Assembly: GCF_041886205.1 (NCBI RefSeq)
Contig: NZ_CP169029.1
Length of the DNA stretch: 64,000 bases
Direction: 5' to 3' (one strand)
DNA from: Escherichia coli
GTDB taxonomy: Bacteria > Pseudomonadota > Gammaproteobacteria > Enterobacterales > Enterobacteriaceae
Under the pieces are notes generated by a model. That model was not told the DNA's origin and did no database searches. It saw nothing but the letters and a program-made list of their open reading frames with translations. Both the position numbers and the translations under genes were made by a program. Below are positions 33,992 to 38,756 of this stretch, piece after piece (the first letter of the stretch is position 1; each line of letters begins with the position of its first letter).

Positions 33992-35743
33992 TTAACTTGC
34001 CAGCTTTCTGAGTTTTTCGATGCCCGTAGGTTCTTGTGCGAATAGAGGGACCAGCGCTACACGCTTAGCATGTCGGGCCATCACCGCCTCAATTTGTGGT
34101 CGTTCCTGCGTTGCTCGCTGACACAGTAGCGACGAACGTGTATCCGCAATAGAAAGGCAGTTATTGATTATCCAGCCCCAGGGATGAATCCCTGCGCGTT
34201 CAAGATCGGCCTGCAAATTAGCCGCTTCCAGTACGGGCGTGGTTTCAGGCAGCGTAACCAGCAGCACTTTGGTGCGTTGCGGATCCTGAAGTAGCATCAT
34301 TGGCGTAGTAAAGTGACCTTTTTCGCCCATTTTTTTCGCAATTTCACGGTGATAAGCCCCGGTGGCATCCAGCAATAACAGCGTGTGACCGGTTGGCGCG
34401 GTATCCATCACCACAAAACGTTTACCCGCCTCACGGATCACGCGCGAGAACGCCTGAAATACAGCAATCTCTTCGGTGCAAGGAGAGCGTAAATCCTCTT
34501 CCAGCAGTCGTTTCCCCGCTTCATCGAGATCTTTTCCCTTTGTCTCAAGGACATGCTGGCGATAGCGCTCGGTCTCTTCCTGCGGATTGATCCTGCTGAC
34601 CTGTAGGTTGGTAAGTGTGCCGTTTAGGGTAGTGTTAATGTGGGCAGCAGGATCGGAGGTTGTAAGATGCACATCGAATCCCATATCTGCCAGGCTGACG
34701 GCGATAGCTGCGGCCATTGTGGTTTTCCCCACGCCGCCTTTTCCCATCAGCATGATCAGACCGTGTTCACTGCGGGCAATATCATTCACTAGCTCAGAGA
34801 ATGACATGTTTTCAAAGAATTGCTGGCGCATCTGGTCAGAGAGCGGTGCAGGCTCGAAACGGGTATTAAAAAGACCTTTTAATGCAGGCACGCCAACCAT
34901 GTTCACCGGTTGAAGAAAGAGGGTATCTGCTGGAATGGTCGATAAACCGGCGGGTAAATTTACCAGGGCTTCCTGCTCACGCTGAACTATTGCCATTGCT
35001 AGTGGGTCATTTTGCTGCCCGGACTCAGGCAATACGCCGTTGATCACCAGATAATGATTTTTAAGACCAATCGCTGCCAGTTCTTCATGAGTGCGAGCGA
35101 CTTCCTGCAATGTTGATTTTTGCAGGCGTGCAACCAGCACCAGGCGGGTACGCTCAGGATCGGATAATGCTTCTACCGCATCAGCGTACTGCTCACGCTG
35201 TTTTTCCAGCCCAGCCATCGGGCCAAGACAGGAGGCACCATCGGGATTACTTTCAATAAAACTGCTCCAGGCACCGGGGAGCTGCAGAAGTCGTATGGTA
35301 TGGCCCGTTGGCGCGGTATCAAAAATGATGTGATCAAAGCGGGCCAGCAGAGAGGCATCGGTCAGTAAACCGGTGAACTCATCGAACGCCGCGATCTCCG
35401 TCGTACATGCTCCCGAAAGTTGTTCGCGTATACTATTTACAACCTCCTCAGGGAGAAGTCCTTTGATAGGGTCAACGATTCTGGCCCGATACTGTTCAGC
35501 GGCTTGCTGAGGATCAATTTCCAGCGCGGACAAACCGGGAACCGCTGTCACAGGAGTAATAGCGTTACCAATAGTTTGATTAAATACCTGACCGACATTC
35601 GACGCGGGGTCGGTGCTGACAAGCAGAACCCGTTTTCCCTGTTCCGCCAGATGGATAGCAGTTGCGCAGGAAATTGACGTTTTACCTACACCTCCCTTAC
35701 CGGTAAAAAACAGATAAGGCGGGATATTCTGTAAGAATTTCAT
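33992..35743 (-). CDS. arsA: Arsenite pump ATPase ArsA, 583 aa
   Basis: Two P-loops (GKGGVGKT in each half) typical of ArsA; start at MKFLQNIPP. Confidence 0.9.
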   Translation of the reverse strand: MKFLQNIPPYLFFTGKGGVGKTSISCATAIHLAEQGKRVLLVSTDPASNVGQVFNQTIGNAITPVTAVPGLSALEIDPQQAAEQYRARIVDPIKGLLPEEVVNSIREQLSGACTTEIAAFDEFTGLLTDASLLARFDHIIFDTAPTGHTIRLLQLPGAWSSFIESNPDGASCLGPMAGLEKQREQYADAVEALSDPERTRLVLVARLQKSTLQEVARTHEELAAIGLKNHYLVINGVLPESGQQNDPLAMAIVQREQEALVNLPAGLSTIPADTLFLQPVNMVGVPALKGLFNTRFEPAPLSDQMRQQFFENMSFSELVNDIARSEHGLIMLMGKGGVGKTTMAAAIAVSLADMGFDVHLTTSDPAAHINTTLNGTLTNLQVSRINPQEETERYRQHVLETKGKDLDEAGKRLLEEDLRSPCTEEIAVFQAFSRVIREAGKRFVVMDTAPTGHTLLLLDATGAYHREIAKKMGEKGHFTTPMMLLQDPQRTKVLLVTLPETTPVLEAANLQADLERAGIHPWGWIINNCLSIADTRSSLLCQRATQERPQIEAVMARHAKRVALVPLFAQEPTGIEKLRKLAS

Positions 35744-35760
35744 ATGTCCCCCTGACCGGC

Positions 35761-36123
35761 TCAACAACAGTCGGTTTTTCCGCCACAGCAGTGTGTTGGT
35801 GCCAGTCCCACCTTCTCCAGCGGGATCCCAAACCAGCGGGCTAGCTCGGCGCGTTTCGGATAACGGCCCGCCATCACGGTTTCGCCTCCCAGTAAGATCA
35901 AGGGCAATCCTTCCGCCCCGGAAGCCTCAAGAAACGCTTTCGCTTTTTCGTTTTGCACGAAACTCATCGGTTGCTGCGCGAGATTGTAACGTTCGACCTG
36001 AACACCGCGGCTTTTCAGCCATTGCACATCTGCGGAAAAATCGACCAGCACCTGATCAACATCAGAACCACAGACGCCGGTACTGCAACACATCGCCGGA
36101 TCAAACACCGTTAACGTCTTCAT
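35761..36123 (-). CDS. arsD: Arsenic metallochaperone ArsD, 120 aa
   Basis: MCCSTGVCG N-terminal motif and C-terminal CCGG...CC, close to plasmid R773 ArsD. Confidence 0.9.
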   Translation of the reverse strand: MKTLTVFDPAMCCSTGVCGSDVDQVLVDFSADVQWLKSRGVQVERYNLAQQPMSFVQNEKAKAFLEASGAEGLPLILLGGETVMAGRYPKRAELARWFGIPLEKVGLAPTHCCGGKTDCC

Positions 36124-36170
36124 CTTCGATACCTCACATTCGGAAAATCATATATATCAAGTCAAATTTT

Positions 36171-36524
36171 TTAACTGCAACTTGCTTTACCGTCAGCAGA
36201 GCAGTTGGCTGCGGCCAGCTTACGGGCGATAGCCTGCACGTCGTCCAGTTGGCTTAATCTTGTTTGCTCAATAATTTTCGCCGCCCATGCTGGAATATGC
36301 GGCGATAAGCGGTAATGAACCCACTTACCCTGCTTGCGATCCAGCAATAGCCCACTTTCACGCAGCAATGCCAGGTGGCGGGAGATCTTGGGCTGCGACT
36401 GGTCGAGAGCAGTACAGAGATCGCAGACACATAACTCTCCCAGCTCGCTGAGCAGTAAAACGATGCCCAGACGGGTCTCATCAGCAAGAATTTTGAACAG
36501 TTGGATGGGTAAGAGAAATGACAT
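36171..36524 (-). CDS. arsR: Arsenite-responsive repressor ArsR, 117 aa
   Basis: ELCVCDLC metal-binding site in an ArsR/SmtB fold. Confidence 0.93.
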   Translation of the reverse strand: MSFLLPIQLFKILADETRLGIVLLLSELGELCVCDLCTALDQSQPKISRHLALLRESGLLLDRKQGKWVHYRLSPHIPAWAAKIIEQTRLSQLDDVQAIARKLAAANCSADGKASCS

Positions 36525-36674
36525 ATTGCGCTCCTGATTGTTGCAGGTAGTGTCTCTCTTCGAAGCGGATAAGTCAAAAACATATATGACTTAACGAATG
36601 TGTAAGCGCAGAAGAAGGTAATAGGTGTGAATTTTGAGTTGGGTATTCATTTGAAAGGAGGTCTGAATCAGGAC

Positions 36675-36765
36675 GTAAAAAAACCGACTTTGTGTCGGTT
36701 TTTTACTTCCCAGCCCTGAGTTGGTGGCTCTGGCTGGAGTGAGAGAGCTCTTATCTAACAGTTCA
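36675..36765 (-). ncRNA. agrB: AgrB small RNA, trans-antisense regulator of dinQ
   Basis: Terminator hairpin plus U-tract on the minus strand; about 33 nt complementary to the dinQ 5' region with 2 mismatches; coordinates approximate. Confidence 0.65.
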
Positions 36766-36908
36766 ATACTATTAGCCAGTGGCTAACATTGCAAGAATTA
36801 GCGATTTCTTCAGCTGGAGAAGGGACAGTTTGCTATACATGTTGGTGAAAGAGGATTTATATACTTTCATCGGGTCGCTGCCGTACCAAGCCTTGTCCGA
36901 ATCCGGAT

Positions 36909-36998
36909 GTAAAAAAACCGACTTTGCGTCGGTTTTTTACTTTCCAGCCCTGAGTTGGTGGCTCTGACTGGAGTGAGATAGCCATCATCTAACGCATC
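36909..36998 (-). ncRNA. agrA: AgrA small RNA, paralog of AgrB
   Basis: Second copy of the same repeat with its own terminator and more mismatches to dinQ; coordinates approximate. Confidence 0.6.
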
Positions 36999-37057
36999 AA
37001 TGCTAATACCATACTGAAACTATTGCAAGGACGTGCTGGTTTTATAACCTGCATGTA

Positions 37058-37073
37058 CTGTATGATTATCCAG
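37058..37073 (+). promoter_or_regulatory. LexA box in the dinQ promoter
   Basis: CTGTATGATTATCCAG (CTG-N10-CAG) upstream of dinQ. Confidence 0.75.
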
Positions 37074-37266
37074 TTAGCTCTGAGGCATTTTCACTCTGGC
37101 AATGCGCATAAACGCTTTCAAAGTCCTGGTCAGAAGTACGGGTGGTGCCGTTAACTGATGCTCTGGCCGGAGTGAGAGAGTTCTTATCTAACAATGAGAC
37201 ATGCGCCGTGACAGGCAGTGGATGAGTAAGCGGATGCATTCTCACTCCATCGCATGGAGAAAACGG

Positions 37267-37350
37267 GTGATTGATAAAGCAATCATCGTTCTTGGGGCGT
37301 TAATTGCGCTGCTGGAACTGATCCGCTTTCTGCTTCAGCTTCTGAACTGA
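37267..37350 (+). CDS. dinQ: DinQ type I toxin peptide, 27 aa
   Basis: GTG-initiated ORF encoding (M)IDKAIIVLGALIALLELIRFLLQLLN, matching the DinQ peptide as remembered. Confidence 0.8.
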   Translation: MIDKAIIVLGALIALLELIRFLLQLLN

Positions 37351-37366
37351 TAGCGGAAACGTAATT

Positions 37367-37400
37367 AAGGGCTAAGAGCACACTACTCTTAGCCCTTTAA
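37367..37400. terminator. Bidirectional hairpin between convergent dinQ and gor
   Basis: Stem aagggctaagag / ctcttagccctt. Confidence 0.6.
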
Positions 37401-37403
37401 CAT

Positions 37404-38756
37404 TTAACGCATGGTCACGAACTCTTCTGCCGCCGTCGGGTGAATGGCAACCGTGTTGTCGAAGTCTTTTTTGGTTGCGCCCATCTTCAGCGCCACCGCG
37501 AAGCCCTGCAACATTTCGTCCATACCAAAACCAATTCCGTGAATACCGACAATCTTCTCTTCCGGCCCAACGCACACCAGCTTCATGCGGCACGGCTGGC
37601 GGTGAGTGGTGACTGCGGTATACATCGCGGTGAAAGAGGATTTATACACTTTCACCTGATCGTCGCCGTACTGCTCGCGCGCCTGCGGTTCCGTTAAACC
37701 AACAGTACCAATCGGCGGATGGCTGAAGACCACGGTCGGAATGTTGCTGTAATCCAGATGCTCATCCGGCTTGTTATTAAACAGGCGTTCAGAGAGGCGG
37801 CGACCCGCTGCAACTGCCACCGGTGTCAGTTCTACTGCACCCGTGTTATCGCCCACCGCGTAAATACCTTCAATGTTGGTGTTTTGATATTTATCGACGA
37901 CGATATAGCCTTTTTCGTTAGTTTTAACGCCAGCGGCTTCCAGGTTGATGTTGTCATTGGCAGGCTCGCGACCAATCGCCCAAATCAGGCAATCCACCGT
38001 TTCACTGCGACCATCTTCCAGCTCCAGCGTCAGGCTACCATCGGCATTTTTCACTACCGCTTTCGGGATGGCGTTGGTGTGCAACTGCGGGCCTTCGGCG
38101 TTCATCACTTCGACCAGCGTTTCAGAGATCATCGGGTCGAAGCTGCGCAGCGGCGCATGTTTACGCACAAACAGATGCGTTTTCGCGCCGAGGCCGTTAA
38201 TCACGCCCGCCAGCTCAACGGCGATGTAACCCGCGCCAACAACAGCCACGCGCTCTGGCAAAGCAGGAAGGGCGAAGAAGCCATCAGAATCAATACCGTA
38301 TTCCACGCCTGGAATATCCGGGTGGCTCGGACGACCGCCGGTGGCGATCAGAATATGATCGGCCGTGATGGTTTCGCCGTTTACCTCCAGCGTTTTGGCA
38401 TCAACGAAGCGGGCAAAGCCTTTGATTACATCAACGTTATTTTTACCGAGCACGTTTTCATAGGAAGTATGAATACGGTCGATATAGGCGGTACGGCTGG
38501 CGATCAACGTTTCCCAGTTGAATTTATTGATAGTGGTATCAAAACCATAATCCGGGCCGTACATATGGATCGCTTCACGGATTTGCGCCGCGTGCCACAT
38601 CACTTTCTTCGGTACGCAGCCGACGTTCACGCAGGTGCCGCCCAGCTCTTTGGCTTCAATCAGTGCGCATTTCTGGCCGTACATAGCCGCGCGGTTGATG
38701 GAGGCGATACCGCCGCTGCCGCCGCCGATGGCGATGTAATCATAGTGTTTAGTCAT
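37404..38756 (-). CDS. gor: Glutathione reductase Gor, 450 aa
   Basis: FAD-binding GGGSGG motif and redox-active CVNVGC. Confidence 0.95.

Follow-up and report, generated by a model that had tools for sequence, protein, structure and literature searches.

Among the type I toxin-antitoxin loci of Escherichia coli, the ldr/rdl long direct repeats, ibs/sib and zor/orz are tandemly repeated. Pseudogene fragments remaining at the joints of tandem duplications are a general phenomenon of genome evolution, and some islands insert into the 3' end of a tRNA or protein gene and restore it, duplicating this 3' end. The copy number of zor/orz varies (PMC11264685). Weel-Sneve et al. (2013; PMC3567139) studied the type I toxin-antitoxin locus dinQ-agrAB and, as the two sRNAs are similar, presumed that agrA and agrB are tandem duplicates; AgrB acts as the effective antitoxin, and AgrA has partly degenerated. 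A literature search for a gor fragment in the arsR-gor spacer found no mention, and the gor relic described here (gor') is apparently undescribed for this locus as far as the literature found shows.

The window analyzed here is a stretch of 64,000 nt of E. coli DNA (contig NZ_CP169029.1), whose arsR-gor spacer is 100% identical to that of E. coli strain 6EVA. The order along the window is agrB unit, relic, joint, agrA unit, dinQ and gor (37404–38756, minus strand, intact), with arsA, arsD and arsR on the minus strand to the left of agrB. The agrB repeat unit (36655–36794, minus strand) consists of a post-terminator tail, the terminator, the AgrB sRNA (36675–36758, minus strand; Rfam RF02891, 103.3 bits), a -10 element and the -35 element TTGCAA (36789–36794). 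The agrA repeat unit (36889–37028, minus strand) harbors the AgrA sRNA (36909–36992, minus strand; Rfam RF02891, 106.2 bits), a terminator and a promoter with the -35 element at 37023–37028. Both agr terminators have A- and T-runs on either side. By position and match to dinQ, the two sRNA genes are agrB and agrA of Weel-Sneve et al. They form a direct repeat with a period of 234 bp (36661–36774 and 36895–37008, 87% identical), which extends through both promoters once small gaps are allowed. A third, shorter copy of the repeat (37160–37193) is the antisense target in the 5' UTR of dinQ. The dinQ toxin ORF (37267–37350, plus strand; 27 aa, GTG start; annotated as 'dinQ' in RefSeq; PMC3567139) is preceded by a LexA box at 37058–37073. 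On the other side of the spacer, arsR, arsD and arsA (33992–36524; Pfam ArsD, ArsA_ATPase and HTH_5) lie beside agrB instead of the K-12 arsRBC arrangement. The arsR gene differs by 13.6% from a K-12-like arsR while the adjoining spacer is almost identical, which points to a recombination mosaic boundary near 36525.

The preliminary description had placed a 45-nt copy of an internal gor segment between agrB and agrA (36844–36888), about 80%–85% identical to gor and in the same orientation. The position was correct, with AgrB-family matches on both sides, and the similarity also held: the 45-mer matches 37629–37673 at 37 of 45 positions (82%) as a direct copy. The assignment to gor residues of about 370–385 was wrong, as the 45-mer corresponds to codons 362–376 and the whole relic to codons 362–388. 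While the copy itself is real, its left start had been set about 30 nt too far to the right. The best ungapped match was found between 36834–36886, the best-preserved core of the relic (minus strand), and gor 37619–37671 (44/53 positions, 83%, same orientation). In a self-comparison for repeats, the relic and gor formed a direct, colinear pair with a spacing of 785 bp. We compared this similarity to chance by 300 dinucleotide-preserving shuffles of the whole 879-bp arsR-gor spacer, searching both strands of gor. The Smith-Waterman score of the window relic against gor was 35, about 16 sd above the shuffles (mean 12.9, sd 1.3, maximum 18).

In the K-12-like, E69 and E. whittamii alleles the homology comprised 77 nt of the intact gor gene (37595–37671, minus strand; CDS 1086–1162). 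These alignments scored 33–47 against about 9 ± 1.4 for the shuffles (E. whittamii 47 against 9.2 ± 1.4, K-12-like 33). Alignments to gor located the corresponding relic of the window, termed allele 1, at 36813–36888 in the sense direction of gor (minus strand). Its left 21 nt are heavily decayed, its central 26 nt differ from gor at one base, and an 18-nt perfect match is kept. As the homology spans 77 nt in the other alleles, gor-derived DNA occupies almost the whole gap between the agrB promoter and the agrA unit. The similarity was colinear and in the same orientation, and the observed scores were reached by no shuffle. Judged from its sequence, the fragment is a genuine, decayed and non-coding relic of the 3' part of gor. 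When searched with the AgrB sRNA family model, the relic gave only a plus-strand match of 26.6 bits, which is below the gathering threshold of 40 bits and was driven by the adjacent terminator. A search for features of a mobile-element end found no flanking inverted repeat and no transposase or integrase ORF between arsR and gor.

We compared the gor neighborhoods from 80 enterobacterial species, with E. fergusonii, E. marmotae and E. ruysiae being outside the sample. Among the matches listed, dinQ and agr adjoin gor in E. coli E69, E. whittamii, E. albertii, Citrobacter youngae CCUG 30791 and Citrobacter sp. On2M, and Kosakonia sacchari has dinQ-like and agr-like genes one gene away from gor. 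The relic, whose conservation the preliminary description had proposed to check, was present in E. whittamii and E. albertii and absent in Citrobacter and Kosakonia. Both Citrobacter strains and Kosakonia have dinQ, a single agr and no gor-like DNA beside agr; in Citrobacter the agr tail leads directly into the end of the neighboring gene. In K. sacchari SP1 (L060, 4609–5100), the dinQ-like gene has 79% nucleotide identity, and it has the GTTAGTCAGAGACAGTTC antisense segment in common with the terminator-bearing, agr-like sRNA gene. This sRNA is below the Rfam gathering score for AgrB, and the family model therefore misses it.

E. whittamii has two agr genes together with the relic, and E. albertii has a single agr of the agrA type. 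In E. albertii the same post-terminator tail is followed by TAGTACGGCGGCAATCAGGT, which matches gor CDS 1084–1103 at 17 of 19 positions and starts as the E. coli relic does. Located 17 nt further, GCGGCGAAAGAATTCATGACCATGCGTTAA matches the last nine codons of gor and the stop codon (TAA) at 26 of 30 positions. The two pieces are colinear, and each scored above all 300 shuffles. They indicate that the copy once spanned at least CDS ~1084 to the stop codon (268 nt), with different lineages having lost different parts. The DNA behind the gor' stop codon is 94.8% identical to E. coli plasmids of about 90 kb, some of them annotated 'phage tail protein', which indicates a later insertion. We had considered this DNA as the native gor terminator and rejected this due to its phage-plasmid-like character. 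In E. albertii NBRC 107761 (L009, 4431–5657) the plasmid-like DNA is followed by a higB/higA-like pair, and the ars operon is absent there. An independent, E. albertii-like metagenome contig has the same structure; it was the one contig retrieved when metagenomes were searched for less decayed joints. The E. albertii-type relic was also sought in E. coli genomes and was found on none of the chromosomes.

The gor-proximal end of the relic (…GCCGTAC, 36886) is 3–8 nt distant from the base with which the agrA unit starts (…AAGCCTTGTCCGAATCCGGATGTAAAAAAACCGAC). With the relic ending at 36886–36888 and the agrA unit starting at 36889–36894, the copy ends at the boundary of the repeat unit. At the joint (36887–36894, no strand assigned), the gor homology (…CCGTAC) gives way to the first part of the agrA unit (…AAGCCTTGTCCGAATCC…). 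The only new joint of a direct tandem duplication is that of the far end of the block to its near end, and a piece of gor set against the beginning of an agr unit in the same orientation has just this appearance. The same joint was found in E. coli alleles 1 and 2 (allele 2 being the K-12 type), E. whittamii, E. albertii (L009, 4362–4375) and the E. albertii-like metagenome contig, and it was absent in both Citrobacter strains (L023, L025) and in Kosakonia (L060), as for a single origin. The proposal of a duplication scar involving the 3' portion of gor, which had been made in the preliminary description, was supported by the direct colinear copy, the position of the joint, its presence in several lineages, the outgroups and the tree of agr units.

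In this neighbor-joining tree (promoter to tail), A and B units formed sister clades inside Escherichia. All agrA units fell into the A clade, together with the unit of E. albertii and those of some E. coli that have just one; the B clade contained agrB of E. coli and E. whittamii. The two clades are 17%–19% apart, and both are 21%–27% from Citrobacter. The divergence of gor' from gor (17%–25%) is similar to the distances of the agrA and agrB clades. Between E. coli and C. youngae, dinQ is 87% and gor 85% identical, and this agreement fits vertical descent. We also considered a foreign origin of the resident gor 3' end and rejected it, since there was no identity break in five bins against 15 species, and none of these species showed a divergence break at the last 268 nt of gor. 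Together with the similar identities of dinQ and gor, this leaves nothing to indicate an outside source for dinQ or for the 3' end of the resident gor. The sequences are most simply read as gor, dinQ and a single agr having been in place before the event, which probably happened after the split from Citrobacter and before the split of the Escherichia species.

We consider it probable that a single tandem duplication of ~785 bp, followed by deletion, left a non-functional relic, and this is our best explanation. The Escherichia ancestor of E. coli, E. whittamii and E. albertii would already have had gor, dinQ and one agr, as Citrobacter does. A block from gor CDS ~1084 to ~25 nt beyond the agr terminator would then have been duplicated in direct tandem. 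It would have run from the 3' 268 nt of gor, stop codon included, over the shared terminator and the toxin gene dinQ, which LexA controls, to the divergent promoters and agr. The sequences themselves show the homology, its orientation, the common joint, the distribution among species and the lack of constraint; we infer a full-length intermediate, arranged as gor, dinQ, agrA, joint, gor' (268 nt), dinQ' and agrB, and also the order of the deletions that followed. In the line of E. coli and E. whittamii, a deletion of ~551 bp, as calculated from the 785-bp source spacing minus the 234-bp repeat period, may have taken the remainder of gor' together with the second copies of the terminator, of dinQ and of the dinQ promoter. 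This would have left agrA, gor' (~77–93 nt), the agrB promoter and agrB. The putative deletion joint (36795–36812) is located between the agrB promoter and the relic, in a stretch conserved among the alleles. In E. albertii, an internal deletion would have kept nt 1–19 and the last 30 nt of gor' with the stop codon, and everything beyond gor' would have been replaced by foreign phage-plasmid-like DNA. The relic would have decayed neutrally thereafter. Two events, one duplication and one deletion, would thus account for the presence and orientation of a second agr gene and for the relic that separates the two.

Some observations speak against this explanation. The full intermediate was kept by no lineage examined, and in E. 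albertii no more than a few nt lie between the gor' stop codon and the foreign DNA, a coincidence under the duplication-deletion model. We found no remnant of a second dinQ' or terminator' between the relic and agrB, or beyond gor' of E. albertii, in the lineages examined; agrB is the sole surviving second copy from the block between the breakpoints. A similarity of 36808–36828 to the end of the dinQ ORF (37333–37353, 71%) was rejected as a dinQ' remnant, since 46 of 300 shuffles were as good and this stretch aligns with gor in other alleles. No gor relic was found between agrA and dinQ (37035–37150). AAGGC, which follows …GGAC in the agrA unit and in Citrobacter, is missing from the distal flank of the agrB unit, so that at least one extra event is needed under any model.

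The relic may alternatively have arisen in two steps, a history that we regard as rather unlikely and that would yield an identical joint. The gor 3' end (~268 nt) would first have been duplicated beside agr, and a 234-bp unit made up of agr and the start of gor' would later have been duplicated to give agrB. The first step could have been the entry of a block of gor 3' end, dinQ and agr into the ancestor, displacing the native gor 3' end, by a single crossover or by homology-facilitated illegitimate recombination in gor; a local templated copy would be another route. E. albertii, which has neither dinQ' nor agrB, would require only the internal deletion, but E. coli would require more events, and the presumed 'native flank' of E. 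albertii is phage-plasmid-like DNA. The patchy distribution of the dinQ/agr module among genera, with differing neighbors, suggests mobility. Against the two-step history, no genus showed a divergence break to the last 268 nt of gor, and the identity of dinQ/agr between E. coli and Citrobacter equals that of gor. A relic distal to agrB is predicted by the two-step history, and in the window allele 64 nt at this position are weakly gor-like (12 of 1000 shuffles as high). In the five other of the six alleles the similarity was not significant (87–809 of 1000 shuffles, 0.09–0.81), and we did not accept this second relic as proven. The data do not fully separate the two-step history from the 785-bp duplication with deletion.

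We also determined how the relic is distributed among 5426 complete E. coli genomes. The K-12 type (allele 2) was present in 3031 genomes and the window/O157 type (allele 1) in 810, together 3841 (71%). All copies are chromosomal, and all but about ten genomes have a single one. These about ten genomes have two allele-2 matches, suggesting further amplification of the 234-bp unit to three agr copies. The relic was missing from 1585 genomes (29%). About 900 of these have a 199-bp fusion, in which the agr antisense segment recombined with the dinQ target and both promoters are gone; the remainder, about 700 by subtraction, have one agr unit after a 234-bp deletion between the repeats. Each E. 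coli allele is nearly uniform, with 2 of 93 positions differing between the window and O157. Between the window (36801–36893) and a K-12-like strain, 25 of the 93 relic positions differ (27%); there is one difference in the adjoining 510 bp of agrA and dinQ, and the flanks differ by 0–3%. The relic is the least conserved and most variable segment of the spacer. In the window, an O157-type relic is set within agrA/dinQ sequence of the K-12 type. The E. whittamii relic shares 90% identity with allele 2 and 77% with allele 1, so the split of the alleles looks older than the split of the species. The divergent alleles could reflect a polymorphism of long standing or introgression from an Escherichia lineage outside the sample.

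The 199-bp deletion occurs in about 15%–17% of complete E. coli genomes, for example at 715–849 of L003 (NZ_CP082047.1), which corresponds to 36961–37193 of the window. A 34-nt agr antisense segment had recombined with the target copy in the dinQ 5' UTR (…GGAGTGAGATAGC joined to CCACATCTAACAATGAG…). Since the agr promoter, the dinQ promoter and the LexA boxes are lost, the toxin-antitoxin locus looks transcriptionally dead in these strains, in which arsR and arsB are absent too. The 34-nt antisense/target segment is located at 36727–36760, 36961–36994 and 37160–37193 of the window, and the same segments are found in L001 and L004–L007. It occurs in at least three sequence types, which are spread differently over agrB, agrA and dinQ between strains. 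In L005, agrA is closer to dinQ than agrB is, and the single agr of L001 matches dinQ perfectly. This distribution suggests that the three repeats convert one another and that strains may differ in which copy is the effective antitoxin.

It appears very improbable to us that the fragment has a function, whether as upstream promoter DNA of agrB, as a small ORF (32 aa, minus strand, 36772–36870) or within a plus-strand RNA that is antisense to gor mRNA and stops at the bidirectional agrA terminator. The 18-nt perfect match to gor and an ATG-initiated ORF are kept in allele 1, the A- and T-runs on either side of the agr terminators would suit such a transcript, and two deeply diverged alleles persist within E. 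coli. However, a 4-nt deletion in the common K-12-type allele (3031 genomes) destroys both the ORF and the 18-nt match, and the ATG is not preceded by a Shine-Dalgarno sequence. A 2–3-nt gap in all alleles also shows that the reading frame is not kept, and the 27% divergence of the alleles without a codon pattern marks the fragment as a relic rather than a gene. When 36500–37450 was scanned for promoters, the plus strand had no promoter-like site. In view of these indels, the high variability of the segment, the lack of such a site and its absence from 1585 of 5426 genomes, the relic is most likely an evolutionary scar and not a working element. It is even harder to believe that allele-1 strains (O157:H7, the window) produce a putative plus-strand transcript with an 18–26-nt, near-perfect antisense match to gor codons 368–376. 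If true, this transcript would tie the SOS-controlled dinQ/agr locus to the expression of glutathione reductase, and selection on the match would explain the persistence of two divergent alleles.

Chance similarity, which nothing favors, or maintenance of the similarity by ongoing gene conversion from gor, with which the one-base difference in the central 26 nt of allele 1 would agree, is scarcely credible, as the score is far above that of all shuffles, all alleles have derived differences in common (the 2-nt gap, T in TATA[T]AC, GGG in C-GGGTC and the joint), and the relic does not follow the gor polymorphism at 37666, where L005 and E69 have G in gor and A in the relic.

We concluded that gor' is a pseudogene-fragment scar of a local duplication, of modest and mainly evolutionary interest, which reveals no new mechanism or function. 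The relic turns the presumed tandem duplication of AgrA and AgrB into a concrete and testable reconstruction, which states how large the block was, where it was joined and when, and that the second toxin was lost while the extra antitoxin was kept. The locus would also be a small example of how an orphan antitoxin paralogue originates in a type I toxin-antitoxin locus. The relic can further be used as a neutral recombination marker; recombination between the repeats of this locus continues, as seen from the 234-bp and 199-bp deletions in ~29% of E. coli genomes.

Compared to the known systems, the locus is the same as that of Weel-Sneve et al. (PMC3567139), with the two antisense sRNA genes as tandem duplicates; that work does not mention DNA derived from gor, how far the duplication reached, where its joint lies or that a second dinQ disappeared, all of which the present reconstruction provides. 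Like pseudogene fragments at duplication joints, gor' is a direct, truncated end of a neighboring gene at the boundary of a repeat unit, has no reading frame and decays freely. Unlike such fragments generally, it lies within the regulatory region of a toxin-antitoxin locus, where the toxin copy was lost and the extra antitoxin was kept. It resembles the gene 3' ends flanking islands in being a displaced or duplicated direct 3' end on the far side of a block beside the intact gene. It differs from these since there is neither an integrase nor an att-like repeat, gor has no divergence break, and the dinQ-agr block appears to have been resident before the event. With ldr/rdl, ibs/sib and zor/orz the locus has in common the local tandem amplification of small toxin/antisense RNA modules and a copy number that varies between strains by recombination of repeats, here by the 234-bp and 199-bp deletions. 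While those loci repeat whole toxin-antitoxin pairs, the antitoxin alone has survived in duplicate at the dinQ-agr locus, with a piece of a housekeeping gene between the copies.
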